A stretch of 41,166 nucleotides of DNA from a virus: the IMG/VR virus record IMGVR_UViG_3300037882_000312. One strand, written 5' to 3'. The translations under genes and the position numbers were made by a program. Of this stretch, positions 100 through 41,166 are shown in pieces. How positions within the stretch are numbered: the stretch's first letter is position 1; each line of letters opens with the position of its first letter. Under the pieces are notes generated by a model. It worked only from the letters and a program-made list of their open reading frames with translations. It made no database searches and was not told the DNA's origin.

Positions 100-354
100 A
101 ACGGAAGCACACTCCATGCAGAACTTAATCGCCTCGCTAACGGTGGCACCTATCCTGCTATTCAGTCATATGTAGGTGCAGCACAAGCTGCAAATACTTG
201 GGCTGGAACTACAGGACTTAGTGTTGTTGGTGCCTTAAATGTCAAGGCTGGAAACAGCCGACCTAATTACAAAGATCTTCGTGGTGTCTGCAATCAACTA
301 GGCGGCACTACCGATAAGGCTGCTGCCGCAGCCCTGAGAGCGGTGAGTTCATGA
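85..354 (+). CDS. Small hypothetical protein (89 aa), probably virion/tail-associated.
   Basis: ATG overlaps the upstream stop (TAATG), and the stop overlaps the next ATG (ATGA). The AANTWAGTTGLSVVGALN motif resembles a motif I recall from actinophage minor tail proteins, but that recollection is weak. Confidence 0.6.
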   Translation: MATGTNGSTLHAELNRLANGGTYPAIQSYVGAAQAANTWAGTTGLSVVGALNVKAGNSRPNYKDLRGVCNQLGGTTDKAAAAALRAVSS

Positions 355-1256
355 CAACAACATTTGGTGGACTTGTAGAACGAGTCCTTGGGCAGATCCA
401 GAGTTATGGGGCCCAGCAGGAGACTGCTACTTGGATTAACCAATCCGGTGGAATTGCATCAACCACAGCCACAGACTTCGTAGTAAATGAGACTGCCCAG
501 ATGGGCCGTGGCATCATCGAGGTTGGCTCTGAACTGATGTATGTAGACCGGACAGACAACCTAACCAAGCAGGTCTACCTTGCCCCTTGGGGTAGGGGTT
601 TTAGAGGCACCACAGCCTCTACAGCGGCCAATCAGACCAAGGTGGTAATTGCACCTCAATACCCACGCTTCATGGTCAAACAGGCTATTAACGACACAAT
701 CTTGGCTGTTTACCCAGAACTCTTTGGGGTAGGCACACACACCTTTAGCTTCAACTCAGCCGTTACTGCCTACTCACTTCCGGCTACTGCCGACTATGTC
801 CTCAATGTCAAGTGGCAGACCATTGGCTCAACCAAGGAATGGCTCAATGTCCGTAGGTATGACACAGACAAGACTGCCAATACAACAGAATTTGCCAATG
901 GTAAGACCATCAATATTTTTGACATGATTGATCCGGGCAGAACTGTTCAGGTTATCTATGCAAAAGCCCCATCTGTTATGTCATCTGAAAGCGACATCTT
1001 TGAGACTGTAACCGGTCTTCCATCATCTACTATCGATGTAATTGTTTATGGAACTATTGCTCGACTTATCGTTGGTTCAGATGCTGCACGAATCCCAAGC
1101 CAGTCAGTAGAAGCAGACATGATGGATCAATCCAAGCCAATCGGTGGCGGAACATCCGTTGCACGATTCTATCTTGGTCTATACCAGCAACGACTACAGC
1201 AAGAAGCTGCTGGCCTTCGAGATCTTTATCCACCCCGACTCCACTATACGAGGTAA
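351..1256 (+). CDS. Virion structural protein (301 aa), possibly an adaptor or tail component.
   Basis: Long ORF translationally coupled to its neighbours and immediately upstream of the tail-fiber gene. I recognised no enzymatic motif. Confidence 0.6.
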   Translation: MTTTFGGLVERVLGQIQSYGAQQETATWINQSGGIASTTATDFVVNETAQMGRGIIEVGSELMYVDRTDNLTKQVYLAPWGRGFRGTTASTAANQTKVVIAPQYPRFMVKQAINDTILAVYPELFGVGTHTFSFNSAVTAYSLPATADYVLNVKWQTIGSTKEWLNVRRYDTDKTANTTEFANGKTINIFDMIDPGRTVQVIYAKAPSVMSSESDIFETVTGLPSSTIDVIVYGTIARLIVGSDAARIPSQSVEADMMDQSKPIGGGTSVARFYLGLYQQRLQQEAAGLRDLYPPRLHYTR

Positions 1257-1259
1257 CTA

Positions 1260-3065
1260 ATGGCCCAAAAAAGATACTACGCCTCAACAGCAAAACAGGC
1301 ATCGCTATCAACCGGTATCGATAGTACTGTTCTATCAATCACGCTTGACCTAGTAACAGGTTTCCCAAGCAACTACCCTTACACCTTAGTTATCGATCCA
1401 GATACCAACAAGGAAGAACTTGTTAAGGTAACTGCATCAGGTGGTGGAACTACACTTACTGTAACTCGTGGTGAAGACTCAACATCGAATGTGGCTCACT
1501 CCGCAGGAGCTACGGTTCGCCATGTGGTTTCTGGTCAGGACTTTAATGAGTTCTCAGCTCACATTGGATCTGCTGCCGTTCCAACAACAGCAGGTGTCCA
1601 CGGAGTAACTGGAAATGTGGTTGGCGATACAGATGCACAGACTCTTACAAACAAGATTATTTCTGGTGCAGTAATTTCAAATGGTGGAATTCAGTTCGAG
1701 GGTGCAACTGCTGATTCTTATGAGACTACCCTTACAGTAGTTGATCCAACAGCAGACCGAACAATCACCCTTCCTAACGCAACTGGAACAGTAACCCTTG
1801 ATGGGGTTGCATCTACTCTTACATCTAAGACAATCACAAGCGGAACCTTGGGTTCTGATCTTGCTGCTGGTGGCTACAAAGTAACTGGTCTTGCAACACC
1901 ATCTGCCAACACAGATGCTGCTACCAAAGCTTATGTAGATACTCAGGTTTCAAACCTTGTCGATGCAGCACCGGGTGCTTTGGATACCCTCAACGAACTA
2001 GCTGCTGCTATCAACGATGATGCAAGTTTCTCAACCACAGTAACCAACTCGATTGCTACCAAGGTTTCTAAGTCCGGTGATTCTATGACCGGTGCTTTAT
2101 CAATGGGCAATAACAAGATTACAGATCTTGCTACACCTACATCATCTACCGATGCAACCAACAAGTCATATATCGATACTCTTTATGGATCAACAGCTTC
2201 GGCTGCTACATCCGCAACATCAGCTCAGACATCAGCAACAAGTGCAGCAACTAGTGCAACTAGTGCTGCTACTAGTGCAACATCTGCCTCCAACTCTGCA
2301 ACAGCAGCAGCAACTTCTGCTGCATCAGCAAGTACTTCTGCATCTTCTGCGGCATCAAGTTATTCATCTGTTGTCGGACTTACCGGTGCAGGTCTTGTTC
2401 GTGACATGGGTGACATAACTGACACAGATACAACATCAACCACTTATATCAATATAGCAACAGTAGCTACATCAGCAGCAAATTCTGCTACGGCTGCTGC
2501 TACATCTGCAAGCTCTGCTTCAACATCGGCAACTTCTGCTGCTACATCTGCAAGTAGTGCAAGCACATCAGCATCTAGTGCTTTAACATCAGCTACTTCT
2601 GCATCAACAAGTGCATCATCTGCCTCTACTTCGGCATCGAGTGCAGCAACAAGTGCATCAGCCGCTTCAACTAGTGCAACTAGTGCAAGCACAAGTGCAT
2701 CGTCAGCGTTGACTAGTGCAACTAGTGCAGCTACTTCTGCCTCCGCTGCTGCAACATCTGCTACAAGTGCATCTACTTCAGCATCTTCAGCAGCCACCTC
2801 GGCAACTGCCGCAGCAACATCTGCGACTAGTGCTTCAACAAGTGCATCATCTGCACTAACATCACAAACAGCGGCAGCTACCTCGGCCACATCAGCCGCC
2901 ACATCCGCATCTTCTGCGGCCACTTCAGCTACCTCGGCAGCTAATAGTGCAACCGCAGCAGCAAGTTATATCCCAGCGATCTCCGCTGGGGTTAACGGTT
3001 ACTTCTTAACAAACAATGGAACATCCGCTTCATGGGCAAGCCTTTCAGATTGGGGAACAGTATAA
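1260..3065 (+). CDS. Tail fiber protein (601 aa) with long Ser/Ala/Thr triplet-repeat shaft segments.
   Basis: The N-terminus ends in LTVTRGEDSTSNVAHSAGATVRHV, typical of phage fiber N-domains. The fiber motifs TLTNKIISG and TLTSKTITSG are repeated, as are GLATPSANTDAATKAYVD and DLATPTSSTDATNKSYID. About 220 aa consist of (S/T/A)-(S/T/A)-A triplets. Confidence 0.85.
   Translation: MAQKRYYASTAKQASLSTGIDSTVLSITLDLVTGFPSNYPYTLVIDPDTNKEELVKVTASGGGTTLTVTRGEDSTSNVAHSAGATVRHVVSGQDFNEFSAHIGSAAVPTTAGVHGVTGNVVGDTDAQTLTNKIISGAVISNGGIQFEGATADSYETTLTVVDPTADRTITLPNATGTVTLDGVASTLTSKTITSGTLGSDLAAGGYKVTGLATPSANTDAATKAYVDTQVSNLVDAAPGALDTLNELAAAINDDASFSTTVTNSIATKVSKSGDSMTGALSMGNNKITDLATPTSSTDATNKSYIDTLYGSTASAATSATSAQTSATSAATSATSAATSATSASNSATAAATSAASASTSASSAASSYSSVVGLTGAGLVRDMGDITDTDTTSTTYINIATVATSAANSATAAATSASSASTSATSAATSASSASTSASSALTSATSASTSASSASTSASSAATSASAASTSATSASTSASSALTSATSAATSASAAATSATSASTSASSAATSATAAATSATSASTSASSALTSQTAAATSATSAATSASSAATSATSAANSATAAASYIPAISAGVNGYFLTNNGTSASWASLSDWGTV
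2190..2960 (+). repeat. Coding low-complexity tandem repeat in two blocks (about 2190-2365 and 2460-2960), made of 9-nt-periodic gcaac(t/a)agtgca-type units encoding SATSA repeats.
   Basis: The periodicity is visible in the nucleotide sequence. It generates spurious long ORFs in other frames and on the other strand (2092..2418 +, 2444..2923 -). Confidence 0.85.
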
Positions 3066-3622
3066 TGGCATTTGCATTCCAACGCAGACGAGGTACAACT
3101 TCTGCTCACTCAAGCTTTACAGGACTTGTTGGTGAACTTACAGTTGATACTGATAAAAAAACAGTAGTAGTACACGATGGATCGGTAGCAGGTGGTTACC
3201 CACTAAGTCGTGAAAAATATGGAATCCACACGACTCCATTTGAAACAGTTACTACCTCGGCCACATCAGCCGCAACAACAGTTACATACGATGCCGCAAC
3301 GCAATCGGTTTTGTATTATACAAATTCTGCTACTGCAAACTGGACATTTAATTTTCGTGGAAACTCAACCACTACATTAAATAGCATTCTTTCAACAGGT
3401 CAATCAATGACTCTTGTATTTCTAAATACAAGTGGAACTACGGCCTATTATCCAACATCAATTCAAGTAGACGGAACTACATCTGGTGTTACAACTAAAT
3501 GGCAAGGTGGAACAGCACCAACAGCAGGAAACGCATCTTCCATAGATGCGTATGTTGTAACAATTATTAAAACAGCTTCTGCAACATTTACAGTACTTGC
3601 ATCACAAACAAAGTTTGCATAA
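3065..3622 (+). CDS. Tail fiber/spike protein (185 aa) with a conserved fiber N-terminal RRGT...GEL..DTD...HDG..AGG motif.
   Basis: The start moves to the ATG at 3065, which overlaps the upstream TAA. MAFAFQRRRGTTSAHSSFTGLVGELTVDTDKKTVVVHDGSVAGGYPL matches the widespread N-terminal domain of phage fibers, hyaluronidase-type spikes and Mtd-type proteins. Confidence 0.75.
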   Translation: MAFAFQRRRGTTSAHSSFTGLVGELTVDTDKKTVVVHDGSVAGGYPLSREKYGIHTTPFETVTTSATSAATTVTYDAATQSVLYYTNSATANWTFNFRGNSTTTLNSILSTGQSMTLVFLNTSGTTAYYPTSIQVDGTTSGVTTKWQGGTAPTAGNASSIDAYVVTIIKTASATFTVLASQTKFA

Positions 3623-3634
3623 GGAGATTAGACA

Positions 3635-4600
3635 ATGCCTTTATTAACCGTTACTAGTTCACCAAGATTAGGAATCACATCGTTGGTTTCTGCATCAAAG
3701 CCAACATCAGTTGAATATCTTGTAATTGCCGGTGGTGGTGGAGGAGGAGGATCTAACTCTGGAACAACATATGCCGGTGGTGGAGGTGCAGGAGGATACA
3801 AGACATCTACTTCATTTAGCGTATCTGGATCAACTAATTACACAGTAACTGTTGGTGCAGGTGGTGCAGGTGGCACAACAGAGCGTGGAGTAAATGGAAA
3901 TAACTCTGTATTTTCATCCGTGACATCAACCGGTGGTGGTGCTGGTGGTCAAGGAACTTCTCTTGACAATCCAACTTCTTATCAAACCGGTGCTGATGGC
4001 GGCTCTGGTGGTGGTGGAGGAGCTTGTTACAAGCCAAATAACGCTACCAACGCAGGTGGTACAGCATCTCCATCGGGTCAAGGTAATGACGGTGGTGCAG
4101 GTAAAATGTACTTTGGTAACCCTACAAATGGTTACGCAGCCGGTGGTGGTGGAGGTGCAGGTGCTGCTGGTGTTGCAGCAACCGTTGCAAGTACTACAAC
4201 TTATGGTCGAGGTGGAGATGGACTTTCTAGCAGCATAAATGGAACTGCAACTTATCGTGGTGGCGGTGGTGCTGGCGGTGGAAGCAGAAGCGGTACAGAT
4301 GCTAATGAAAGACAAGGTGGTTTAGGCGGAGGAGGATATTCTTCTAATGCTTATTACTACGGATCTCGACATTGTGCTGCTGGAACAGCTAATACTGGAG
4401 GCGGTGGCGGTGGCCACGATGGTGACGGCGGAACCGATAAAGGTATGCCGGGTGGTTCTGGAATAGTTATTATTGCTTATCCAGATACATATTCTGATAT
4501 GACTGTTGGATCTGGATTAACATATACAAGAAGCACTTCATCACGATCAGGATACAAAGTTTATACCTTTACTGGTGGAACAGGAACGGTGAGTTGGTAA
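3635..4600 (+). CDS. Glycine-rich tail-associated protein (321 aa).
   Basis: A Shine-Dalgarno-like aaggag lies 8 nt upstream. The protein has many GGGGxGG runs (GGGGGGGS, GGGGAGG, GGGGGAGAAG) and the gene sits between fiber genes. Confidence 0.7.
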   Translation: MPLLTVTSSPRLGITSLVSASKPTSVEYLVIAGGGGGGGSNSGTTYAGGGGAGGYKTSTSFSVSGSTNYTVTVGAGGAGGTTERGVNGNNSVFSSVTSTGGGAGGQGTSLDNPTSYQTGADGGSGGGGGACYKPNNATNAGGTASPSGQGNDGGAGKMYFGNPTNGYAAGGGGGAGAAGVAATVASTTTYGRGGDGLSSSINGTATYRGGGGAGGGSRSGTDANERQGGLGGGGYSSNAYYYGSRHCAAGTANTGGGGGGHDGDGGTDKGMPGGSGIVIIAYPDTYSDMTVGSGLTYTRSTSSRSGYKVYTFTGGTGTVSW

Positions 4601-4974
4601 TGGCACACTTTGCACAACTTGATGAAAACAATATAGTCATACAAGTTATTGTTGCTGGAGATGAATATGAATCTACTGGCGAAGAATTGTATGCACAAAA
4701 TGTTGGTGGTGTATGGAAGCGTACTTCATACAACACAGTAAGTAATCATCATCGCAATGGAGGCACCCCATTTAGAGGAAACTATGCTGGTGTTGGGTTT
4801 ACTTACGATGAAAGATTAGATGCTTTTATCCCACCTAAGCCATTTAACTCTTGGGTACTAGATGAATCTATATGTAATTGGGTACCACCAATTCCAGTTC
4901 CAGATGCATCATCTGCTTGGATGTGGGATGAGGAAACTCTATCTTGGATAGAGCCACCAGTTCCACAAGAATAA
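4600..4974 (+). CDS. Conserved phage hypothetical protein (124 aa).
   Basis: The ATG at 4600 overlaps the upstream TAA. The MAHFAQLDENNIVIQVIV N-terminus and W-rich C-terminus resemble a family I recall from many phages downstream of fiber genes. Confidence 0.6.
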   Translation: MAHFAQLDENNIVIQVIVAGDEYESTGEELYAQNVGGVWKRTSYNTVSNHHRNGGTPFRGNYAGVGFTYDERLDAFIPPKPFNSWVLDESICNWVPPIPVPDASSAWMWDEETLSWIEPPVPQE

Positions 4975-5429
4975 TATCGGCTGGCTTTCCACGGTCAGGT
5001 AATACTTTTCTTTGGCAATTACTGGAGCAATCATTTCCAACCACTAATGTTGTTGAGTTTACACACAATGTAAACACACTAGACATTGTTGGATGTATCG
5101 TTCCAGTAAGAAATCCATACCAATCTGTTCCTAGTTGGTGTGCATTTTCTGGAGAAAAAAATATAGAAGCAACTGCTAAATGGTATATGAGATTTAATAC
5201 AAAAGTATTAAATAATATAAATAATTTATTAGTTGTTGATTTTATAGAACTTTCAACAGACCCACTAATTATTATTAAAAAAATAGCCAATCAATTAAAT
5301 ATCTCCCCAATAAAAGTTAATCATCTAAACATAGATAAAAATGCTAAATTCAAAAACTATGAAGAATATAATAGTCCACTAATGGAAGATTGCTATAACT
5401 TATATAAGGAGATTGTAAAACAATTATGA
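4944..5429 (+). CDS. PAPS-dependent sulfotransferase-like protein (161 aa).
   Basis: GFPRSGNTFL matches the 5'-phosphosulfate-binding loop (PKSGTTW type). PVRNPYQSVPSW matches the 3'-phosphate-binding RNPxxxxxS motif. The only in-frame start is TTG at 4944. The gene is very AT-rich compared with its flanks. Confidence 0.7.
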   Translation: MDRATSSTRIISAGFPRSGNTFLWQLLEQSFPTTNVVEFTHNVNTLDIVGCIVPVRNPYQSVPSWCAFSGEKNIEATAKWYMRFNTKVLNNINNLLVVDFIELSTDPLIIIKKIANQLNISPIKVNHLNIDKNAKFKNYEEYNSPLMEDCYNLYKEIVKQL

Positions 5430-6172
5430 TTATTCAAATAATTGGTTTGCCCGGTTCTGGTAAAACTACATTAGCTACAGAACTTGCAGGCAGAATTAAC
5501 GCCATACATCTTAATGCTGATTATGTTAGATCAACTATTAACTCAGATCTTGGATTTACTCCAAAAGATAGAATAGAACATTCTCGCCGTATGGGCGAAA
5601 TAGCAAAAATGCTATCAAGTCAAGGGTTAGATGTAGTTGTTGACTTCATATGCCCTACTGTTGCTACTCGTTCTGCTTTTGGTAAACCAGACATACTTGT
5701 ATGGATGGATACAATAACAAGCGGAAGGTTTGAAGACACAAATAAAATGTGGGAAAAGCCAGCCACATTTGATTATAGGTTTATTGATTTTGATTCAAAA
5801 AATCAAGCAAGTTTAATAATTTCATATTCTGATTTACCTGATTGGAAAGCACCGACAACCTTAATGCTTGGAAGATACCAACCTTGGCATGAAGGACATC
5901 ACGCATTATTGGAGAAAGCTTATGAAAAAACAACACAAGTTGTTATTGGTGTTAGAGACACTCAAGGTACTAGCGAAAAAGATCCTCTTAGTTATGAAGA
6001 AGTTGCCGATAGGATACGAACCGAAGAACGATCACCTTTTATTGTAAAGTTTCCAAACATTACAAACATAGTTTATGGGCGTGATGTTGGATATAAAATT
6101 GAACAAGTTGATTTGGGTGCAGATATACACGCAATTTCAGCTACGCAAAAGCGTAAGGAAATGGGTATATGA
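5426..6172 (+). CDS. cysC: Adenylylsulfate (APS) kinase domain fused to an HxGH cytidylyl/adenylyl-transferase-like domain (248 aa).
   Basis: The N-terminal half, GLPGSGKTTLA...LNADYVRSTINSDLGFTPKDRIEHSRRMGEIAKMLSSQGLDVVVDFICP, aligns motif-for-motif with CysC (GLSGSGKST...[32 protein letters not shown]...FISP). The C-terminal roughly 110 aa carry LGRYQPWHEGHHALLEKA, a GRFQPxHxGH-type nucleotidyltransferase signature. Confidence 0.8.
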   Translation: MIIQIIGLPGSGKTTLATELAGRINAIHLNADYVRSTINSDLGFTPKDRIEHSRRMGEIAKMLSSQGLDVVVDFICPTVATRSAFGKPDILVWMDTITSGRFEDTNKMWEKPATFDYRFIDFDSKNQASLIISYSDLPDWKAPTTLMLGRYQPWHEGHHALLEKAYEKTTQVVIGVRDTQGTSEKDPLSYEEVADRIRTEERSPFIVKFPNITNIVYGRDVGYKIEQVDLGADIHAISATQKRKEMGI

Positions 6173-6372
6173 AGGTAACTAAATCTCGTTCATTTATTAA
6201 ATCTATTAGTTATAGAATTTTTGGAACTTTAAGTTCTTTTCTTGTTGCTTATGTCATAACAGGAAAGGGAACCCTATCCGCTTTAATTGCTTTTTGGGAG
6301 ACGGTTATCAAGGTAGGAATTTATTATTGGCATGAAAGAATTTGGAACAAGATAGGTTGGGGAAGGAAATAA
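6169..6372 (+). CDS. Small two-TM membrane protein (67 aa), DUF2061-like.
   Basis: SISYRIFGTLSSFLVAYVITG...VGIYYWHERIWNKIGWG matches my memory of the DUF2061 signature (YR..gt...f...y..tG ... YY.HERvWn). The start overlaps the upstream stop (ATGA). Confidence 0.6.
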   Translation: MKVTKSRSFIKSISYRIFGTLSSFLVAYVITGKGTLSALIAFWETVIKVGIYYWHERIWNKIGWGRK

Positions 6373-8367
6373 ATGGTTCAGAAAGCATCTAAATCACCGG
6401 ACATTTCAGAGTCCGTTATCCTCGACCTTACGGGTCGAAGCTCTCAATACTACGATCCAAACACCTATGCCTTTGATGTGGCTATTGGTGGTTTGCCATT
6501 CTTACTGAATGTAAACGACACAACTCCTTACCGCAGATCTACTGCCCGATGGAAATATGAGCGTGTTGACCAAGCTCGTGAACCGGGTGAGCAGACTCTT
6601 GACTCAGGTCTTTGGGTTCGATCTCAAACATCATTTCACCTTGGTGAAGGTGTTCAGTTTCAGGAAGCACTAGAAGGCAACGCAGAACAACTACGCTTTC
6701 GTTACTTTACTGGACAAGGCATTGACCCATGGACTCCGGGCCAAATCTCTTTACTCAAAGACACAACCAAGTTATATCCAGCGGCAACTAATACATCTGC
6801 CAAGATGATTGCTTTGCCAGTTACTATTAGTGGCACAGACTATGTACTTAATGTTAGCTGTGCAGCAGCTTCTGGAACCAATGTTCGTGTATCCAGAGTT
6901 ACTGCTGATGGAACTGTTACAGATTTAATCCTTGGATCCGCCATTTCTAAAGAAATTTTTGCAGCAGAGACAGATGGAAACAATATCTATCTTGCTACAG
7001 AAGATTATATTTATGACTTAGATTTAGTTACATCAGGTGCAACTCTTCACACACATACACATATTGGTGCAACACATAATGCTAGAGCAATCAGCATGAA
7101 ATATGTAAAGAGTCGTTTGATGGTTGGCATTGCATTTGTTGCAGGATCTGCAACTCGTGCAGGTGTTTATGAAGTAGCAACAGCAACACACAATACAACA
7201 GCAAACTTGCCAACTGCTATTGCTAATACAACCACGGTTCCAATTAACTGGTTTTGGTCTGACATAGCAGAAGGTCGTGGTGCTATCTATGTTGCAGGTT
7301 ATGCAGGTGACAAGTCATCAATCTTTAAGATTGCTCCTGACTCATCTGGTGCTTTGGGAGCTGCTGTATCAGTAGCAGACATTCCTCGAGGCGAGACAGT
7401 TAGATCACTTTTTGGATACCTTGGAACCTACCTTGCTATCGGAACCTCTCGTGGTGTCCGTATTGCGGCTATTGCAGATGATGCAACTATTGTCTATGGC
7501 CCATTGATATTTAATTCAACTAACCCAATTCTTGCCTTTGCAGCTAGAGACTCTTATATCTATGCAGGCGTTAAGGCTGGCATAGGTGGTGCTTCTGGAA
7601 TCTATCGCATTTACCTTGGACAACTACTTGATGATGGAACCTACCCATATGCTACAGATATTGTTGCATCTGGAACTACTGGATCAGTAGATTCTTTAGG
7701 GTTCTTTCCAACATCTGCTCAATTATTTTTCTCTGTATATGGCAGCGGAACATGGTTGCAACACGCAACAAACCTTGTATCAGAAGGAACAGTTCAAACA
7801 GCAATCGTTAACTGGGGAACACTAGAAAAGAAAGCATGGAAGCGTGTCCGTGTTGAGACCGGAACCCTTACTGGAAACATTGAAATCTATGCCGATGCTA
7901 ATGAAGGCCGTACTCAGATTACAACTTTGACTACCGGCAACTCATACAACACAGACTTCGATCTATCTGCTGCTTACCCATCGACTCAGGTAAATGGCCA
8001 GTTAGCCTTTACCTTATACCGCAATGCTGATGATTCAACTAAGGGTGCAGTAATGAAGGGTTATGCCATTAAAGCTATTCCTAGCCCTACTCGATCTCGT
8101 CTGATCCAGTTGCCATTGATGTGTTATGACTTTGAATCAGATCGCCGTAACACTCGTTACGGAACTTTAGGCGGAGCCAAGTATCGCTTATCAGCTTTAG
8201 AGACTGTTGAATCGGAAGGTGCAACAGTTCTTGTGCAAGACTTTACATCCGGTGAAAACTTCGATGCTGTTATCGAAGAGATTGCCTTTACAAGAATGAC
8301 CCCACCATCTGGCAATAATGAGAACTTTGGTGGAATCATTACCATTACTATGAGAACGGTAGTCTGA
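6373..8367 (+). CDS. Large virion protein (664 aa), possibly a tail nozzle/tubular-B-like beta-propeller protein.
   Basis: Long ORF with recurring blade-like motifs (NNIYLATEDYIYDLD, GAIYVAGYAGD, SYIYAGVKAG, GIYRIYLG). The call rests on position in the tail module and is inference only. Confidence 0.5.
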   Translation: MVQKASKSPDISESVILDLTGRSSQYYDPNTYAFDVAIGGLPFLLNVNDTTPYRRSTARWKYERVDQAREPGEQTLDSGLWVRSQTSFHLGEGVQFQEALEGNAEQLRFRYFTGQGIDPWTPGQISLLKDTTKLYPAATNTSAKMIALPVTISGTDYVLNVSCAAASGTNVRVSRVTADGTVTDLILGSAISKEIFAAETDGNNIYLATEDYIYDLDLVTSGATLHTHTHIGATHNARAISMKYVKSRLMVGIAFVAGSATRAGVYEVATATHNTTANLPTAIANTTTVPINWFWSDIAEGRGAIYVAGYAGDKSSIFKIAPDSSGALGAAVSVADIPRGETVRSLFGYLGTYLAIGTSRGVRIAAIADDATIVYGPLIFNSTNPILAFAARDSYIYAGVKAGIGGASGIYRIYLGQLLDDGTYPYATDIVASGTTGSVDSLGFFPTSAQLFFSVYGSGTWLQHATNLVSEGTVQTAIVNWGTLEKKAWKRVRVETGTLTGNIEIYADANEGRTQITTLTTGNSYNTDFDLSAAYPSTQVNGQLAFTLYRNADDSTKGAVMKGYAIKAIPSPTRSRLIQLPLMCYDFESDRRNTRYGTLGGAKYRLSALETVESEGATVLVQDFTSGENFDAVIEEIAFTRMTPPSGNNENFGGIITITMRTVV

Positions 8368-8567
8368 TGTCGGCTATGGACTGGGCAGCATTTACAGTAT
8401 CTATCCTTGCAATTATTGGCGGCTTTGCTGCCGGTATTCGTTGGATGGTTATCCACTATCTACAAGAACTTAAAACCAATGGTGGGTCAAGCCTCAAGGA
8501 TCAGGTCAATGCCCTACAAATAAAGGTAGACTTGATATATGACATCGTCACATCCAAGCGAAAGTAA
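8367..8567 (+). CDS. Small membrane protein (66 aa).
   Basis: The start overlaps the upstream stop (ATGA). There is one TM segment (AAFTVSILAIIGGFAAGIRWMVI) followed by the motif NGGSSLKDQVNAL. Confidence 0.6.
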   Translation: MSAMDWAAFTVSILAIIGGFAAGIRWMVIHYLQELKTNGGSSLKDQVNALQIKVDLIYDIVTSKRK

Positions 8568-9144
8568 ATACCCTAACTGGTTTAACATTGCAGCTAAGGG
8601 CTACTTCAGCGAATACCTTCAAGAGTTCAAGGGTAAGCCAAACCTTCACTTCTTACAGATAGGTGTCTATACCGGCGATGCCAGCCTATGGCTGATGAAG
8701 AACATACTTACTGACAAGAGTTCCATCCTTACGGATGTTGATACTTGGCAAGGATCTGATGAAGAGATCCACCATGAGATGGACTTCTCAGATGTCGAGA
8801 AAGTCTACGATGACAAGTTAAAAGATTTTTCTAATGTAATTAAATGCAAGATGGAAAGCCATAAGTTTCTTGCAACCACAGATGATAAAGAGATCTACGA
8901 TTTCATATACATCGATGGAGATCACACAGCACAAGCAGTATTTATAGATGCCAGCCTAGCGTGGAAAGCACTTAAGCCCGGTGGGATTATGGCATTCGAT
9001 GATTATCTATGGGAGCTAGATGCCCCAATCAATCTGCGGCCACAAGCCGCCATTGATCTATTCATTATCTTGATGAAAGACCACTTAACTTTAATAGGAA
9101 CAGGTTCCCAAATATGGATAAGAAAAGAGTTAGAGGCCTACTAG
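8539..9144 (+). CDS. Class I SAM-dependent methyltransferase (201 aa), Methyltransf_24/TylF-like.
   Basis: FLQIGVYTGDASLWL is the SAM-binding motif I. DFIYIDGDHTAQAVFIDASLAWKALKPGGIMAFDDY is the typical IDgdH...pGG..v.dD pattern. Confidence 0.7.
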   Translation: MTSSHPSESKYPNWFNIAAKGYFSEYLQEFKGKPNLHFLQIGVYTGDASLWLMKNILTDKSSILTDVDTWQGSDEEIHHEMDFSDVEKVYDDKLKDFSNVIKCKMESHKFLATTDDKEIYDFIYIDGDHTAQAVFIDASLAWKALKPGGIMAFDDYLWELDAPINLRPQAAIDLFIILMKDHLTLIGTGSQIWIRKELEAY

Positions 9145-10544
9145 CAGTATTCTTCTTAACTTTCGGAACATCAATCTGGTTTATACCAGCATCTCATGCA
9201 GTAAGCACAGGGCCAGCGACAATTACTTGTGCAAAGTCAGATGGAACACAACAGACATTTAATGTTCAATGGGATAACAGTAATTCTTACTTCAATGGTA
9301 AGGGTGATATTGCTAGGTTATTCTGTGAAGGTGGACACGCAGGTAACCAGTTCACAATCTTTGTATCAACATCAGTAACTGATGGGCCACTTCGTTATTA
9401 CAACGGAGTTATGCCTGATCCAACTCCTGCTCCGACTCCGGAAGCTTCTCCATCTCCGAGTCCAACACCGACTCCAACTGAGACTGCAACTCCTTCACCT
9501 GAGCCGACAGCCGACCCAACAGCATCTCCGAGTCCTTCTCCCTCACCTGAGCCTTCACCAAGTCCGACTTCAGCACCATCAAATGAGCCTGCGACTGAGC
9601 CAAGCCCGACTCCAACTCCTGTAGCTTCACCTTCTGCGGAGCCGACCCCTGAACCAAGCCCACAACCCAGCCCGACAGAAACCCAAACATCAGAGCCAAC
9701 GCCAACACCATCTGTTGATCCATCTCCTACACCTTCCCCTGATACTTCAACGGCTGTAACCCCTGTTCCAGCCCCTGTAGAACCTACACCTGCCCCGGCT
9801 CCAGAACCTCAACCGACTCCTCAACCTGTACCAGATCCGGTACGAGAGCCAGAACCGGTGCCGACTCCAACTCCTCTTCCAGATCCTCAGCCTCAACCAA
9901 CCCCACTTCCAGAGCCAACTCCAGCACCTCAGCCCGAACCTGCTCCATCTCCTGAGCCGTTACCCGAACCACCTGCTCCAGAGCCTGAACCACCAGCTCC
10001 AGAACCCGAAGCAATTCCGGATCCTGCCCCTGAGCCAGAGCCTGTTCTAGAGCCAGAGGTAGTTCCTGATCCACCAGCTCCTGAACCTGAGCCTGAACCT
10101 CCATTACCGGTTGAACCTCAGCCAGAGCCAGAACCTGAACCTGCTCCAGAGCCTGTGACAGAACCTGATGAACCTACGCAACCTGAACCCCCTGTTGTAA
10201 TACCTGAAGAAAATGTTACACCCGATGTGGTCGTACTCACAGACGACACGGATCTTGAATCATTGGATCCACAAACTCCAATCGAGTTAGAGAACGGTGT
10301 AGTTCTAACAGCAGAGGTAGTAATTGCGTTGCAGTTATTTGAAAACCCAGCGGAATTACTAGCCGAGATTTTTACAGATCCCGGACAAGTTCTCACAGCA
10401 CTATCCAACATAGGTGCCGACCTATCCCCAGAGGTTCGTGCAAGTGCAGAGAAAGTAATTGTTTCAGCGATCATCGCAGGAAACATTGCAACTCAAGCAG
10501 CGGCTGGGGCCGCCGCAGCAGCAGCCTATAGGAGGAAACCATGA
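9114..10544 (+). CDS. Secreted/membrane-anchored proline-rich envelope protein (476 aa).
   Basis: There is an N-terminal signal or anchor (LLAVFFLTFGTSIWFIPASHA). A small Cys-containing domain follows, then about 265 aa of PT/PS/PE/PEP repeats. The C-terminal domain ends in a hydrophobic stretch plus a basic tail (AAGAAAAAAYRRKP). Confidence 0.75.
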   Translation: MDKKRVRGLLAVFFLTFGTSIWFIPASHAVSTGPATITCAKSDGTQQTFNVQWDNSNSYFNGKGDIARLFCEGGHAGNQFTIFVSTSVTDGPLRYYNGVMPDPTPAPTPEASPSPSPTPTPTETATPSPEPTADPTASPSPSPSPEPSPSPTSAPSNEPATEPSPTPTPVASPSAEPTPEPSPQPSPTETQTSEPTPTPSVDPSPTPSPDTSTAVTPVPAPVEPTPAPAPEPQPTPQPVPDPVREPEPVPTPTPLPDPQPQPTPLPEPTPAPQPEPAPSPEPLPEPPAPEPEPPAPEPEAIPDPAPEPEPVLEPEVVPDPPAPEPEPEPPLPVEPQPEPEPEPAPEPVTEPDEPTQPEPPVVIPEENVTPDVVVLTDDTDLESLDPQTPIELENGVVLTAEVVIALQLFENPAELLAEIFTDPGQVLTALSNIGADLSPEVRASAEKVIVSAIIAGNIATQAAAGAAAAAAYRRKP

Positions 10545-10711
10545 AGTCTTTCTTCTCAGATATAGCCAATCAACTATGGACACTTCTCGGAATGTTCATT
10601 GCTTGGGTTGTACTAGAAGGATCAGCAAAGACAGTAGTTGGTTACGCAATCATTCTATCCCTGATTGTTTGGTCAATTACATTTAAGTTAAGACAAGATG
10701 AGGATGAATAA
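10541..10711 (+). CDS. Small two-TM protein (56 aa), holin-like. It is not in the supplied ORF track.
   Basis: Hand translation gives MKSFFSDIANQLWTLLGMFIAWVVLEGSAKTVVGYAIILSLIVWSITFKLRQDEDE. An aggagg sits 5 nt upstream. The start overlaps the upstream stop (ATGA) and the stop overlaps the next start (TAATG). Confidence 0.65.
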   Translation: MKSFFSDIANQLWTLLGMFIAWVVLEGSAKTVVGYAIILSLIVWSITFKLRQDEDE

Positions 10712-12307: not shown

Positions 12308-12461
12308 AGAATTCTATATCGACAACTTCATAAAAAGAATTGATGCAGCTAAGAAGCCATCAGACTCAGATATATCTGATGCGTGGAATGCAGGTCTAAA
12401 TAAAGCAATTCAAATACTCGAACAGATCAAGGAAGAATCACACAATGCCACACAGCAGTAA
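12297..12461 (+). CDS. Small hypothetical protein (54 aa). It is not in the supplied ORF track.
   Basis: Hand translation gives MLLKEFYIDNFIKRIDAAKKPSDSDISDAWNAGLNKAIQILEQIKEESHNATQQ. It fills the gap between neighbouring genes with short overlaps at both ends. Confidence 0.45.
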   Translation: MLLKEFYIDNFIKRIDAAKKPSDSDISDAWNAGLNKAIQILEQIKEESHNATQQ

Positions 12462-13179
12462 AGAAACCCTATCAATCTCATGGTGTGACAACGGTGTGAC
12501 TGATGGCAAGTTCACAGAAGGACTTGTATACACAATGCTTATGGCACACACAGTTGGTGTGCCTATCAACAATGCAATGAGAGTTAAAGGTAATCAGATC
12601 TCTCGTCAGCGTATGCAGTTGTTCGATCTATGGGCAGACCAAGCTAAGACCGATTGGCTACTATGGGTTGATTCAGATATTGTATTAACCAAAGAAGTTC
12701 TCAAGACTTTATGGGATACAGCAGACAAGGTCTCACGACCTGTTGTATCAGGCGTATACTTTGTATGGAAAGACAGTCTCAATAACTTACCGGTTCCAAT
12801 GCCAACTATCTTCAAAGAAGGTAGAAGTAAATACGAGATTGAATACATACATCCATTACCAGAGAATGAAATTATTCCGATTGACTCTGCTGGGTTTGGC
12901 TGTGTATTGATGCACAAGTCAATCATTCCAAAGCTGAGAGAGAAGTTTCCGGATAAAAGTTTCTTCCACGAGAATGATCTTACGGAAGATAAGTTTATTG
13001 GCGAAGATATTATCTTCTTCAATCTACTGAAAGAAGCAGGGATTCAAGCCTATGCACACACAGGTGCATTGGTTACGCATATGAAGACTTTTCCTTTTGA
13101 TATTTCTTACTATGCACTTTTCTGGACAGCGTATAATCAAGTGCAAGAAAATATGAAAGAGGGTAAAGCAGATGAGTGA
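12445..13179 (+). CDS. GT-A fold (family-2-like) glycosyltransferase (244 aa).
   Basis: WLLWVDSDIVL contains a DxD motif. GFGCVLMHKS and GEDIIFF are typical of GT2-like enzymes. Confidence 0.6.
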   Translation: MPHSSKETLSISWCDNGVTDGKFTEGLVYTMLMAHTVGVPINNAMRVKGNQISRQRMQLFDLWADQAKTDWLLWVDSDIVLTKEVLKTLWDTADKVSRPVVSGVYFVWKDSLNNLPVPMPTIFKEGRSKYEIEYIHPLPENEIIPIDSAGFGCVLMHKSIIPKLREKFPDKSFFHENDLTEDKFIGEDIIFFNLLKEAGIQAYAHTGALVTHMKTFPFDISYYALFWTAYNQVQENMKEGKADE

Positions 13180-14129: not shown

Positions 14130-14537
14130 ATGGCCGAACTAGGCTTTCAAGTATCAACAAAGACAAACGATGGAACAATCTTTGTCATTGCAGATGCAAC
14201 ATATCAAGGCTTCTCACAGAAACTAGCAGAAGCTTTAGATCCAAGTGGTGCCGAGTCGCTACTACAAGCCATGGCTAACGCCTTCACAGGCTCTCAACCA
14301 ATGACAACGCAAGCGATTGCACAAGCATTCAATGCAACTGTAATCACACCACCGCAAGATGCATGGGGTCAGCCAGCGAATGCTGCCCCTACTAACGGCC
14401 CAGTATGTAAGCACGGAGAACCAGCAAAGCAAGTTCCTGCTGGTGTATCCAAAGCATCGGGAAAGCCTTATCGTGCTTTTTATGCTTGCTCACGACCACA
14501 GGGCCAGCAATGCGACTTCAGAGCAAACGCTTCTTAA
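14130..14537 (+). CDS. Hypothetical DNA-binding protein (135 aa) with a C-terminal topoisomerase-type zinc ribbon.
   Basis: CKHGEPAKQVPAGVSKASGKPYRAFYACSRPQGQQCDF resembles the C-x-(C/H)...G.pyF.aCs..p..C.f zinc-ribbon pattern of Topo IA and GRF-type fingers. Confidence 0.55.
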   Translation: MAELGFQVSTKTNDGTIFVIADATYQGFSQKLAEALDPSGAESLLQAMANAFTGSQPMTTQAIAQAFNATVITPPQDAWGQPANAAPTNGPVCKHGEPAKQVPAGVSKASGKPYRAFYACSRPQGQQCDFRANAS

Positions 14538-14815
14538 TGTCGTTGGTGGAGCCGGGTAAGCCTTCTTACCCGGCCTTCACCGGTACCGAAGCTTGTGCAT
14601 CTATCGGTAATGAACATTTCTGCACAGAAGAAAGAGACTTCACACACTATGAAACACTTCGTAATGTGTGTGCCACTTGCCCACTATTAGTATCTTGTTT
14701 TAATTGGGCATTACACAATGAAGACTTCCACTATTGGGGAGGATCTTCTGCAATCGAACGGCGAAAGATCCGTCAAGAACTTAAACTGGAAAGAAAGAGG
14801 AGTGTCGCAGCCTAA
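14537..14815 (+). CDS. whiB: WhiB-like Fe-S transcription factor (92 aa).
   Basis: The start moves to the ATG at 14537, overlapping the upstream TAA. Four Cys are present, including CATCPLLVSC (CxxCxxxxxC), followed by HYWGG (the G[VI]WGG turn) and the basic tail RRKIRQELK. Confidence 0.85.
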   Translation: MSLVEPGKPSYPAFTGTEACASIGNEHFCTEERDFTHYETLRNVCATCPLLVSCFNWALHNEDFHYWGGSSAIERRKIRQELKLERKRSVAA

Positions 14816-17497: not shown

Positions 17498-17595
17498 AGA
17501 AATTTTTTTTAATTGCAACTCTTGTAATTACATTGGTGTTCTTCGTTGCTAAGTTTGTAATGGATGCCATCATCGAGCTAGAAGATGAGGACTGA
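17494..17595 (+). CDS. Tiny single-TM protein (33 aa). It is not in the supplied ORF track.
   Basis: A GTG start overlaps the upstream TGA, and the stop overlaps the next ATG. Hand translation gives VKKFFLIATLVITLVFFVAKFVMDAIIELEDED. Confidence 0.4.
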   Translation: MKKFFLIATLVITLVFFVAKFVMDAIIELEDED

Positions 17596-19372: not shown

Positions 19373-19493
19373 TTCTCCTTCCACATCAGGGCTGTAACCA
19401 GCCCGAGCATAGGTATTACCATGAGTAGTGGTTGCCCCTCGGCTATCCCAACAGGGAGAGTAAAGAACAACAGAATGAATAAGAGGAATCCAA

Positions 19494-41152: not shown

Positions 41153-41166
41153 TGGCAACTGGTACC
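41068..41166. repeat. Terminal direct repeat, copy 2, identical to 1-99.
   Basis: Base-by-base comparison with the start of the window. Confidence 0.95.

Follow-up and report, generated by a model that had tools for sequence, protein, structure and literature searches.

A four-gene module within the tail-fiber operon of a complete ~41-kb phage genome (99-bp terminal repeat) is best explained, with moderate confidence, as a PAPS-making sulfation module that probably acts on a component of the virion or fiber. The module comprises ORF A and genes 1 to 3 and occupies positions 4594-6372 of the window, which is the whole stretch of DNA analyzed (41,166 nt; IMG/VR record IMGVR_UViG_3300037882_000312) (Table 1). 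The original prediction, made from the sequence alone, had proposed that the phage may make its own PAPS for sulfation, and this pathway stands as the best overall reading of the domain identities, predicted folds, and gene linkage described below.

Table 1. Features of the sulfation module and its surroundings in the window (nt positions).
Feature	Position	Strand	Remarks
SU10_adaptor protein	351-1256		upstream of fiber-type genes
Upstream tail-fiber-type genes	1260-4600	+	Pfam Mtd_N, Gly_rich_2; tail-related PHROGs
ORF A, 126 aa, phrog_7759	4594-4974	+	E = 1.4e-39; directly after Gly-rich fiber gene
Gene 1, 161 aa, TTG start	4944-5429	+	minimal sulfotransferase-fold protein, from motifs and predicted fold
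AT-rich run quoted in the original prediction	5211-5243	+	inside gene 1; one exact match, none expected by chance
Gene 2, 248 aa	5426-6172	+	two-domain fusion
Gene 2 N-terminal domain, ~residues 1-135	5426-5830	+	APS-kinase-like P-loop kinase without lid
Gene 2 C-terminal domain, ~residues 136-248 (113 aa)	5831-6172	+	minimal HxGH nucleotidyltransferase
Gene 3, 67 aa	6169-6372	+	DUF2061 small membrane protein; two predicted hydrophobic helices
Downstream genes	6373-9144	+	664-aa phrog_11667, 66-aa ORF, then methyltransferase gene
Methyltransf_24 / O-methyltransferase-like gene	8539-9144	+	~2.2 kb downstream of cassette

Genomic context and base composition

The fiber-type genes upstream of the module encode a 601-aa Ser/Thr/Ala-repeat fiber, an Mtd_N protein, and a Gly_rich_2 protein. 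Genes 1 to 3 overlap successively by 4 nt, and the next gene begins at 6373, directly after the end of gene 3. Their GC contents (0.298, 0.363, and 0.324, respectively) are far below the median ORF GC of 0.451, and by this measure all three rank in the bottom four of the window's ORFs; in a 486-nt sliding analysis, the global minimum fell within gene 1, at ~5101, and only 0.7% of windows were as AT-rich as that gene. The three tightly coupled, AT-rich ORFs of the original prediction were recovered at their exact coordinates, and the peptide motifs that it quoted (GFPRSGNTF, VRNPYQSVPSW, and GRYQPWHEGH) were all found in the translations. The host is probably a freshwater actinobacterium, an assignment made at the phylum level only.

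The further claim that the cassette is a recently acquired moron, that is, an autonomous cassette with foreign codons, was rejected on several grounds. GC3 ranged from 0.19 to 0.25 in the cassette and from 0.19 to 0.30 in the flanking tail genes; the GC dip therefore reflects amino-acid composition rather than foreign codon usage, being produced by K/N/I/F-rich enzymes encoded beside G/A/T/S-rich fibers. Promoter-like sites were not enriched at the cassette (6 versus 8.9 expected), no terminator was found to bracket it, and its genes are translationally coupled. Additionally, related phages hold the cassette at the same locus with 60-84% protein identity, and in one of these loci (L021) the gene order downstream of the cassette matches that of the window.

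ORF A and the sulfotransferase-like gene

Sulfotransferases are recognized by a 5′-phosphosulfate-binding (5′-PSB) loop of the form P-K/R-S/T-G-T/S/N-T and a 3′-phosphate-binding (3′-PB) motif, R-x-P...S, at a strand-helix junction. Gene 1 carries both signatures, as had been predicted: across 26 homologs, S18, G19, and N20 of the 5′-PSB loop (GFPRSGNTF) were invariant and G14, F15, P16, and R17 were at least 90% conserved, and R56, P58, and S64 of the 3′-PB motif (VRNPYQSVPS) were invariant. K132 was likewise conserved in at least 90% of these homologs, as was His41 (FTHN), a candidate catalytic residue between the two motifs; a His occupies the aligned position in fused forms of the protein, and one homolog, P0028, lacks it. 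The AF2 model of gene 1 (pLDDT 84.9, pTM 0.81) also pointed to a sulfotransferase fold, with the top 35 Foldseek matches in the PDB all being sulfotransferases (E = 1e-4 to 8e-3, TMq 0.40-0.62) and those in BFVD being viral sulfotransferase-domain proteins. Sequence profiles stayed below threshold. Gene 1 scored 16.9 bits with Pfam Sulfotransfer_1 (cut-off 22) and 17.3 bits with Sulfotransfer_3 (cut-off 27), at E ~ 5e-3 and with only the PSB loop matched, and a profile search of the PDB with gene 1 reached sulfotransferases only at a non-significant E ~ 0.5. The protein is ~100 aa shorter than characterized sulfotransferases. It would hold PAPS through its 5′-PSB and 3′-PB motifs and pass the sulfate to an acceptor.

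The unit reaches upstream of gene 1, since ORF A has its homologs in the first ~90 aa of proteins of ~280 aa that end in the gene-1 domain. Such fusions occur in loci L027-31, L037, L047, and L050-52, and where the two are unfused the ORF A homolog sits immediately before the gene-1 homolog. Some fused members of the gene-1 family have a degenerate PSB loop, and the 3′-PB motif is kept in fused members as RNPxDSxxS. From this arrangement, we propose that ORF A serves the putative sulfotransferase as a partner or as a targeting domain.

The APS-kinase domain of gene 2

An APS kinase had been predicted in the N-terminal half of gene 2, and Pfam, sequence searches of the PDB, fold comparison, and retained alignment positions all agreed. 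The Pfam APS_kinase match reached 58.3 bits (cut-off 21.1) and spanned positions 4-91 of the 152 in the profile, and NCBIfam TIGR00455 (apsK) scored 58.2 bits, below its cut-off of 138.7. The best matches in the PDB sequence search were all APS kinases, as were the top 50 Foldseek matches (E down to 6e-9; TMt 0.55-0.76, single-domain entries). Relative to the CysC domain of NodQ, gene 2 keeps the P-loop (GLPGSGKTT), D32, R35, F44, R49, FICP, and F102; of these, D32, R35, F44, and R49 were at least 95% conserved in 25 sequences with 39-79% identity to the window protein, and F102 was invariant only in the close set A2. In the same alignment, DGD is changed to NAD with loss of the first Asp, and 19 lid residues are deleted, such that gene 2 has neither the complete DGD motif nor the mobile lid (KGLYKKARAGE). 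The retained acceptor-site residues presumably have the roles assigned to them in the published APS-kinase structures 1m7g and 2ofx, and the domain would be expected to phosphorylate the 3′-OH of adenosine 5′-phosphosulfate to give PAPS.

The DUF2061 protein

Gene 3 matched Pfam PF09834 (DUF2061) with 62 bits against a cut-off of 23.1 over the whole profile (positions 2-52 of 52), which confirms the predicted assignment. The prediction had also pointed to an association of DUF2061 with APS kinases, and this proved well founded: of the 105 gene-2 loci, at least 85 also encode DUF2061, and 57 have it directly downstream of gene 2. A cellular counterpart was found on a Mesorhizobium symbiosis plasmid, where a DUF2061 gene lies between a NodH-like sulfotransferase gene and cysD/cysN (nodPQ) (preprint 10.1101/2022.04.26.489235); the arrangement belongs to Mesorhizobium from Astragalinae hosts. 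Several other cellular DUF2061 contexts have no sulfate link. We suggest that this membrane protein accompanies the PAPS-making enzyme as an obligatory accessory, conceivably tethering it to the membrane or coupling it to the sulfate supply.

Linkage to sulfotransferases and structural genes

Sulfotransferase-like genes of several families lay within 8 kb of gene 2 in 49 of the 105 loci; when only the 42 loci flanked by 5 kb or more on each side were counted, 23 had one. Roughly half of all gene-2 loci had no recognizable sulfotransferase at that distance. The mini-ST family was present in 23 of the compared sequences and cluster 20 (Sulfotransfer_2-like) in 18, with Sulfotransfer_3 proteins in L019, L043, and L100. 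The association extends to other contexts of the fusion: in a SAR116 single-cell genome, a TPR-Sulfotransfer_3 protein adjoins it, beside aroA-cmk-rpsA; a Sulfotransfer_1 gene lies two genes past a fusion of reverse domain order (P0392); and in Xylella phage Sano a weak Sulfotransfer_4 match (gp33) lies two genes upstream.

The cassette was also found next to fiber genes in podo-like (L021-23) and myo-like (L024-26) loci and in a ~119-kb phage-like contig (L019), and the slot that it occupies is taken in other phages by hydroxylases, glycosyltransferases, a carbamoyltransferase, and larger sulfotransferases. The module would be expressed late, within the tail-fiber operon, and its acceptor would most likely be a virion component made in the cytoplasm, such as the neighboring fiber proteins or a glycan on them. 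A virion acceptor is favored because the module is co-transcribed with fiber genes, because the sulfotransferase is fused elsewhere to the small protein that follows the fiber gene, and because modifying enzymes occupy the same slot in other phages.

Not all relatives share this placement. In Sano-like and DLP_6 phages, the fusion lies among early or DNA-metabolism genes rather than tail genes, and Ralstonia phage RSL1 has an APS-kinase-like ORF beside TET-associated glycosyltransferases and sugar nucleotidyltransferases, contexts that would suit a role in DNA hypermodification, with the kinase and nucleotidyltransferase (NT) domains activating or decorating modified bases like the P-loop kinases of thymidine hypermodification. 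This role has next to no probability for the module described here, however, given that the window and most metagenomic relatives have the module in the fiber region with DUF2061 and sulfotransferases, that the kinase acceptor-site residues agree with those of APS kinases, and that no base-modifying enzyme was found beside the module in the window.

Several gene 2 homologs are named adenylylsulfate kinase in public metagenome records (JGI), which illustrates how such viral genes come to be counted as CysC, and viral CysC-family genes from Lake Biwa have been interpreted as auxiliary metabolic genes for assimilatory sulfate reduction (10.1101/655167), raising reduced sulfur in the host for protein synthesis. 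Applied to gene 2, that interpretation is very improbable. The complete phage genome contains no PAPS reductase, sulfite reductase, or sulfurylase; gene 2 is co-transcribed with a sulfotransferase-fold gene in a tail-fiber operon; its companions elsewhere are sulfotransferases and glycan- or protein-modifying enzymes, not cysH or cysIJ; and the downstream pathway is missing from the groups to which the host probably belongs.

The nucleotidyltransferase domain of gene 2

The C-terminal ~113 aa of gene 2 belong to the HxGH nucleotidyltransferases, in line with the original prediction for the last ~110 aa, as indicated by a Pfam CTP_transf_like score above the cut-off (25 versus 21 bits) and by relatives among the NMN adenylyltransferases (NMNATs). 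Three elements of the domain are invariant, namely GRYQPWHEGH, the PN..YGRDVGYK block, and ISATQKR. In a profile search of the PDB, the domain matched the NMNATs NadM of Francisella (2qjt, E = 3.7e-9) and MJ0541 (1f9a, E = 2.4e-7), with which it shares GRxQPxHxGH, a strand-loop ending in NPF/NPL, and a terminal SxTxxR; PPAT matched weakly. The alignment to NMNATs was confined to the first ~65 of the 113 residues (~4-68; targets of 168-352 aa), with the stretch from the NPF motif to SxT replaced by the PN..YGRDVGYK block and approximately one-third of an NMNAT missing. Judged by sequence, the domain is therefore closest to archaeal/NadM NMN adenylyltransferases and not to ATP sulfurylase, yet it falls short of a full NadM-type NMNAT; the signatures are present, but the alignment is partial and the scores with the curated NCBIfam NMNAT models were 29.7 (cut-off 127) and 24.5 (cut-off 181). 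It falls short of a Sat-type ATP sulfurylase as well: PF01747 matched only 2 of 14 family members, below threshold (E = 0.01-0.05; 13-16 bits versus 24.3) and only in the shared HxGH half (profile 29-94 of 212), and 113 aa hold neither a full catalytic domain nor a PUA-like domain. HEGH and the invariant YGRDVGYK stand in the order of the HxxH and GRD loop of ATP sulfurylases, and YGRDVGYK is a candidate counterpart of the GRD loop.

These relatives raise the question of NAD+ salvage of the NadR/PnuC type, which could counter NAD+-depleting host defenses, with the NT domain as an NMN adenylyltransferase, the kinase acting on nicotinamide riboside, the membrane protein as an importer, and gene 1 as an unrelated P-loop-like protein. 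NadR likewise joins an NMNAT to a P-loop kinase, and in phage Sano the fusion is immediately preceded by an NADAR-domain gene; both observations, along with the GRxQPxHxGH signature and the NadM/archaeal neighbors, count for salvage. We nevertheless regard it as improbable. No NadR kinase domain was found among the top 50 fold matches and leading PDB sequence matches of the kinase, which retains the positions aligned to the phosphosulfate- and adenine-binding residues of CysC, and the NT domain is shorter than NMNATs of 168-181 aa and always paired with APS kinase, not with a Nudix or NR kinase domain. DUF2061, with two helices, is unlike PnuC and is placed in the nodH-nodPQ cluster, sulfotransferases of several families co-occur with the module, and the same NT domain is also fused to a fully canonical CysC.

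Fusions varied in architecture. The kinase-NT order was present in 54 of the best 150 representatives (counted from the table of representatives), and the reverse order, with NT followed by a canonical full-length CysC, in P0300 (212 bits) and P0392 (202 bits). In L119, the pair is split into adjoining kinase and NT genes, and in P0314 kinase-NT is joined to another membrane domain, DUF4118. The fusion also has cellular carriers, namely the SAR116 genome L010 and the 81-kb contig L118. The window and all 106 loci lack CysD and the GTPase domain of CysN, and no window ORF of at least 300 aa matched ATP sulfurylase in Pfam.

Most plausibly, the NT domain would adenylylate sulfate as a non-canonical ATP sulfurylase that feeds the kinase its substrate, which would make gene 2 a 248-aa PAPS synthase. 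We put this forward tentatively, as a possible rather than a probable role. Evidence on the original suggestion of a minimal sulfurylase fused to a kinase is divided: the domain's nearest relatives by sequence proved to be NMNATs, an outcome that the original prediction had itself named as counting against it, and its sulfurylase matches were sub-threshold, whereas the missing third of an NMNAT, the pairing with APS kinase, and the lack of a canonical sulfurylase in the phage speak for it. Alternatively, the sulfation reading would be right and the NT domain would not activate sulfate, with host ATP sulfurylase supplying APS and gene 2 boosting its conversion to PAPS; the NMNAT-derived domain would then have another role, for example in adenylylating another small phosphate ester, in nucleotide sensing, or in folding or oligomerization. 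Outside acI, many Actinobacteria are able to activate sulfate, and SAR116 L010 and contig L118 may have cys genes of their own; the significant relatives of the domain are also NMNATs only, with PPAT weak and the sulfurylase matches restricted to the HxGH half. We find this alternative rather unlikely nonetheless. The HxGH, SxT..R, and YGRDVGYK residues are invariant even though copies of the domain share only ~40% identity, and such invariance speaks for a catalytic role that has been conserved. The association with APS kinase, whether fused in either order or split into two genes, is a pattern that consecutive steps of a pathway typically show. The NT domain also takes the positions of ATP sulfurylase in known bifunctional PAPS synthases, and the phage has no sulfurylase and its likely host groups no pathway; acI Actinobacteria lack assimilatory sulfate reduction (PMC5301498).

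Comparison with known systems

A close parallel to the proposed sulfation module is offered by the rhizobial nod genes, in which nodP/nodQ (CysD and a CysN-CysC fusion, making PAPS) accompany nodH; in both, PAPS supply lies beside a sulfotransferase and DUF2061. Like the nod genes, the phage module is proposed to decorate one particular molecule that is exported or assembled, and not to assimilate sulfur, and the NodU-like carbamoyltransferase of other phage loci and the Methyltransf_24 gene of the window echo the Nod-factor decoration set. Unlike nodPQ, the phage has neither CysD nor CysN and instead fuses a 113-aa HxGH NT domain to a lid-less APS kinase; its sulfotransferase has 161 aa versus 248 aa in NodH, and the module lies inside a tail-fiber operon.

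PAPS synthases form a second point of comparison. The metazoan enzymes PAPSS1/2 consist of APS kinase followed by ATP sulfurylase, and bacterial and fungal PAPS synthases are Sat-CysC fusions; the gene 2 family similarly fuses APS kinase to a domain of the HxxH/HxGH superfamily, with both orders represented. It differs in that its NT domain is not PF01747, is about one-fourth to one-third the size, and has no PUA-like domain, and in that the gene 2 kinase is lid-less and the whole protein is 248 aa rather than ~620 aa.

Among phages, actinobacteriophage glycosyltransferase genes near structural genes are said by Freeman and colleagues (2023) to modify capsid and tail proteins. The module resembles that system in having modifying enzymes within the structural module and a virion protein as the likely substrate; in contrast, the chemistry proposed here is sulfation, which requires phage-encoded synthesis of the donor.

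Implications

Annotated sulfotransferase-domain proteins occur in OM43 phages and in cyanophages such as P-SSM7, and they have also been catalogued in giant viruses. Published readings of viral CysC and sulfotransferase genes have been assimilatory sulfate reduction (10.1101/655167) or “function unclear,” and among the papers that could be searched, none was found to unite a kinase-NT fusion with DUF2061 and a sulfotransferase in a single module or to assign such a module to a fiber operon. Here, these genes are read as parts of one sulfation module. The fused kinase-NT enzyme is widespread in phages, where it has previously been read as a sulfur-assimilation gene; it may instead supply PAPS for sulfation, probably of the virion itself.

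Cassette organization and genomic context

An exact 99-bp direct repeat occupies the two window ends, leaving ∼41.07 kb of unique sequence; the window was thus considered a complete phage genome, either circularly assembled or terminally redundant, with a structural module that spans both ends. The three ORFs of the candidate sulfation cassette (genes 1–3) were recovered exactly where the original prediction had placed them, with mutual overlaps of 4 nt and with the next gene abutting. Their AT-richness was also borne out: the GC contents of genes 1, 2, and 3 (0.298, 0.363, and 0.324; median, 0.451) are among the four lowest of any ORF in the genome, and the AT run that had been singled out was located. 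The proposal that the cassette is a recently acquired moron, however, did not hold. GC3 of the three genes (0.19–0.25) did not differ discernibly from that of the fibre genes on either side (0.19–0.30), so the dip in GC reflects amino-acid composition; promoter-like sites were not enriched in the cassette region, and no bracketing terminator was found there. In related ∼40-kb phages (protein identity 60–67% in gene 1, reaching 84% in gene 2), the cassette lies at the same site, between Gly-rich/phrog_7759 genes and the gene for a ∼660-aa protein. Recent horizontal acquisition was rejected on the basis of GC3 and synteny. A Methyltransf_24/O-methyltransferase-like gene (GC3 of 0.46 vs. 0.19–0.30 in all of its neighbors), kept after the ∼660-aa protein in the compared locus L021, is the better candidate for a recent arrival when set against the cassette.

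The WhiB-like gene, the Rpf-type transglycosylase-domain protein, the DUF4192 match, and the sigma-70 region-4 protein together point to an actinobacterial host, at the level of phylum. A tRNA scan for host clues found no tRNAs, and a megablast search with 25 kb gave no match among 50,697 phage records. Related contigs derive from lake metagenomes, and acI Actinobacteria, which lack assimilatory sulfate reduction (PMC5301498), are one plausible host group.

Coordinates of features in the window and in compared loci
Sequence	Feature	Coordinates	Remark
Window	Direct repeat	1-99 and 41068-41166	
Window	SU10-type adaptor	351-1256	
Window	Fibre-type genes	1260-4600	601-aa Ser/Thr/Ala-repeat fibre, Mtd_N protein, Gly_rich_2 protein
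Window	601-aa fibre-like protein	1260-3065	
Window	ORF A	4594-4974 (+)	
Window	ORF A/gene 1 overlap	4944-4974	31 nt, different frames
Window	Gene 1	4944-5429 (+)	TTG start
Window	AT run	5211-5243	
Window	Gene 2	5426-6172 (+)	
Window	Gene 3	6169-6372 (+)	
Window	Methyltransf_24 gene	8539-9144	
Window	476-aa protein	9114-10544	Hydrophobic N-terminal segment and very long Pro-rich tract (PEPEP, PTPTP, PSPSP)
Window	Compositional outlier	9501-10000	GC 0.588, GC skew -0.46; opposite direction to cassette
Window	244-aa ORF	12445-13179	
Window	WhiB-like gene	14486-14815	
Window	Sigma-70 region-4 protein	17595-18236	
Window	Rpf-type transglycosylase-domain protein	18965-19648 (-)	
Window	DUF4192	21961-22443 (-)	Weak match
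Window	Capsid gene	38283-39206	Closest isolate relatives: Streptomyces podophage major capsid proteins, 34% identity
L001 (Xylella phage Sano)	gp33-gp36	4957-7028	gp33, weak Sulfotransfer_4; gp34, NADAR (92 bits); gp35, kinase-NT; gp36, 101 aa
L003 (Ralstonia phage RSL1)	ORF238 region	3989-8369	
L016, L017, L018 (MAG contigs)	Split gene-2 homologs	3892-4636, 5786-6530, 2808-3478	Two pieces in different frames (kinase/NT)
L025, L082, L085	Modification-gene examples (and equivalents)	9390-10001, 9731-10639, 3239-4672	
L116	P0314	785-1972	395 aa

Gene 1 has a sulfotransferase fold

Pfam matched the N-terminal loop of gene 1 alone, below threshold, and its sequence profile had no significant match to solved sulfotransferases (the top match was a spurious thioredoxin); the link to solved sulfotransferases thus came from fold comparison only. 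The top 35 PDB matches to the AF2 model, a confident one (pLDDT 84.9), were all sulfotransferases, including SULTs, the CurM and OLS sulfotransferase domains, StaL, and TPST2, and annotated viral sulfotransferase-domain proteins were matched in BFVD. Across 26 homologs, R17, S18, G19, and N20 of the 5′-PSB loop and R56, P58, and S64 of the 3′-PB motif were invariant or nearly so, and H41 was at least 90% conserved.

A narrow gene-1 profile searched against neighbors in the first 26 loci returned orthologs only; a broader profile, built from IMG/VR loci, found the family in ∼30 of the compared sequences. The gene-1 domain is joined in ten loci to an N-terminal homolog of ORF A (phrog_7759), forming a single ∼280-aa protein, and in unfused loci the ORF A homolog immediately precedes gene 1, so the functional unit begins with ORF A. 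ORF A sits in the usual slot of fibre-associated helper proteins, which is at most a hint that the enzyme is directed at the fibre. Its overlap with gene 1 could be a simple gene split or a programmed frameshift site yielding short and fused products. Upstream, the 601-aa fibre-like protein carries near-perfect Ser/Thr/Ala repeats over several hundred residues (ATSATSASTSASSA...), a plausible carrier of O-linked modifications. The 244-aa ORF has a weak, sub-threshold Glycos_transf_2 match (E = 8.6e-4); this glycosyltransferase, if real, could build the sulfated acceptor.

Gene 2 joins a divergent APS kinase to an NMNAT-like domain

The N-terminal half of gene 2 matched Pfam APS_kinase (58 bits vs. 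a cut-off of 21), and its strongest PDB sequence matches and its top 50 fold matches were all APS kinases. Aligned to the CysC domain of Mesorhizobium NodQ, it retains the P-loop, D32 and R35 (DGDxxR), F44, R49, F102, and FICP, the equivalent of FISP; in published structures, these positions bind the APS adenine and phosphosulfate. DGD is nevertheless replaced by NAD, 19 lid residues are missing, and the score falls well below the NCBIfam CysC cut-offs, and this half is thus treated as a divergent, lid-less APS kinase.

The C-terminal 113 aa form an HxGH nucleotidyltransferase (NT) domain that the original prediction had likened to ATP sulfurylase. A profile of 14 diverse members (41–81% identity to the window's domain) revealed invariant GR.QP.H.GH.AL, NP[FL] loop, PN, YGRDVGYK, and SAT..R elements. 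The only significant solved relatives were NadM/archaeal NMN adenylyltransferases (2qjt, 3.7e-9; MJ0541, 2.4e-7), whereas ATP-sulfurylase Pfam matches were marginal, sub-threshold, and confined to the HxGH half common to both, and membership in the ATP-sulfurylase family was rejected on that basis. The domain is therefore NMNAT-like by descent and not a Sat-type sulfurylase, the outcome named beforehand as a refutation. Its alignment to NMNATs is confined to the first ∼65 residues, the archaeal enzymes being 168–181 aa long, and it was modeled with a pLDDT of only 54–84.

An exhaustive search with the NT domain alone yielded 949 representatives (E ≤ 1e-3), in which it was essentially always partnered with an APS kinase. 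The kinase-NT order was counted from the table in 54 of the best 150 of these 949. In the reverse order, NT precedes a canonical full-length CysC in P0300 (212 bits, with LDGDNLR, FISP, and a KGLYKKARAG lid) and in P0392 (202 bits), and in the compared locus L119 kinase and NT are adjacent, overlapping genes. The split copies on three MAG contigs represent either pseudogenes with a frameshift, errors of sequencing, or a natural two-gene arrangement as in L119. In P0314 the fusion is preceded by a membrane domain (DUF4118-kinase-NT), which is a second, independent enzyme-membrane link besides DUF2061. Several contigs bearing reverse-fusion or stand-alone NT proteins were too short to inform on context. 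In known PAPS synthases, ATP sulfurylase occupies the positions that the NT domain takes here, and finding the two domains fused independently in either order is a classic hallmark of enzymes for consecutive steps, which argues against a plain NMNAT; a role in NAD salvage, although it would accord with the kinship to NMNATs, fits the data less well and is improbable.

Gene 3 and the neighborhood of gene 2

Gene 3 was recognized as DUF2061, as anticipated (Pfam, 62 bits), and the suspected association of this domain with APS kinases was upheld. Among 105 gene-2-carrying sequences (phage records, MAG contigs, 80 IMG/VR contigs, and the window), DUF2061 was present in at least 85, lying immediately downstream in 57. 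On a Mesorhizobium symbiosis plasmid, a DUF2061 gene also lies between a NodH-type sulfotransferase and cysD/cysN (nodPQ), and the same nod locus is reported in six strains (preprint 10.1101/2022.04.26.489235). In Bradyrhizobium, Phaeobacter, Microbulbifer, Haloterrigena, and Chondrinema replicons, DUF2061 showed no sulfate link, and a general DUF2061-sulfate link in cellular replicons was dropped on account of these five contexts.

Of the 105 loci, 49 have sulfotransferase-like genes, drawn from several families, no more than 8 kb from gene 2; among the 42 loci whose sequence extends 5 kb or more in both directions, 23 do. These genes include a 279-aa Sulfotransfer_3 protein (80 bits) in L019, accompanied by glycosyltransferases and a sugar epimerase; a Sulfotransfer_2-like family (cluster 20); a TPR-Sulfotransfer_3 protein adjoining the fusion on a SAR116 contig that is truly cellular; a Sulfotransfer_1 gene that follows the reverse fusion P0392; and the weak match in Xylella phage Sano. 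Other recurrent neighbors are 2OG-Fe(II) oxygenases (paired in 34 loci), an Asp/Arg hydroxylase, GT2/P4H-TPR proteins, a NodU/CmcH-type carbamoyltransferase (17 loci), and a GlcNAc transferase; taken together, they have the look of a modification toolkit and recall Nod-factor or collagen-like decoration. Where structural genes were identifiable (L019, L024-L026), the modification genes adjoin Gly_rich_2 fibre genes, on both podovirus-like and myovirus-like contigs. The fusion was also found on fifteen MAG/SAG "genome" contigs from unrelated phyla, but these were rejected as cellular donors because most read as mis-binned phage contigs, with only L010 (SAR116) and L118 clearly cellular.

Two isolate phages differ in setting. 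In Sano the fusion lies in an early-gene region and not a tail module, and its NADAR neighbor is unexplained by the sulfation model. In RSL1, the N-terminal ∼125 residues of ORF238 match APS_kinase (57 bits, profile 2-131/152), and Pfam finds no NT domain in this protein; it adjoins two TET-associated glycosyltransferase-like genes, an NDP-sugar pyrophosphorylase-like gene, and a nucleotidyltransferase. Here an APS-kinase-like enzyme may serve another purpose, perhaps the modification of DNA or glycans; as an account of the window's module, DNA hypermodification fits the data less well and is scarcely credible.

Sulfate activation and the proposed module

The best-supported reading, which we consider probable though far from certain, is a sulfation module that makes PAPS and is expressed together with the fibre genes. 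The APS-kinase domain of gene 2 would produce PAPS, gene 1 would use it, and DUF2061 would be an obligatory accessory, with a virion or fibre component, or its glycan, as the most likely target. NodPQH is likewise a dedicated sulfation unit; the window's module differs in its non-canonical PAPS-synthesis enzyme and its phage structural-module setting.

CysD or CysN GTPase homologs were absent from the window and from all 106 loci, NodQ matching the loci only through its CysC part, to gene 2; window ORFs of at least 300 aa had no match to ATP-sulfurylase or PAPS-reductase families. Viral CysC genes have been counted as assimilatory sulfate reduction AMGs in freshwater viromes (10.1101/655167), but that role fits the present data less well and appears highly improbable. 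The main rival accepts sulfation and has the host supply APS; we judge it unlikely, if still worth serious attention. Alternatively, the NT domain itself may activate sulfate, as suggested by its APS-kinase partner in every arrangement, the loss of about one third of the NMNAT scaffold, the invariant Arg-containing GRD motif, and the lack of any sulfurylase in the phage; its only detectable kinship, to NMNATs, argues against this, and we advance sulfate activation tentatively, as possible but not the expected outcome. At the same tentative level, the domain would represent a previously unrecognized, NMNAT-derived class of sulfate adenylyltransferase, in which case gene 2, like thousands of related proteins, would be a minimal PAPS synthase of ∼250 aa.

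Significance

Phage sulfotransferases have been annotated, with a function that "remains unclear" (PMC10580990), and the searchable literature yielded no paper on DUF2061 function or on a phage PAPS and sulfation cassette. PHROGs places the fusion in phrog_10255 ("kinase"), and it is labeled "kinase" or "hypothetical" in Xylella, Stenotrophomonas, Xanthomonas, and Clavibacter phages. The fusion is widespread: IMG/VR has at least 594 contigs that carry it. Gene 2 is matched at E ≤ 0.001 by over 4,000 protein clusters (90% identity), a number that includes cellular APS kinases matching the N-terminal half only.

Sulfation would join the known chemistries by which phages modify themselves or their hosts, and its donor supply would be self-contained. 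The fusion gene, now scored as "CysC, assimilatory sulfate reduction" in viromes, would need re-reading as a marker of surface or virion modification and not of sulfur nutrition, altering what is concluded ecologically about viral sulfur AMGs in lakes. DUF2061 would for the first time have a concrete functional context open to testing, that of an accessory to PAPS synthesis which the Mesorhizobium nod cluster shares. If the NT domain activates sulfate, it would be a third structural solution for ATP sulfurylase, and gene 2 the smallest known PAPS synthase, useful for biotechnological enzymatic sulfation. Gene 2, DUF2061, and the mini-sulfotransferase would then enable phages to sulfate virion (fibre) components of their own, even in hosts unable to activate sulfate, such as genome-streamlined freshwater Actinobacteria. 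Sulfation of the fibre would have direct consequences for adsorption, host range, and particle surface charge.
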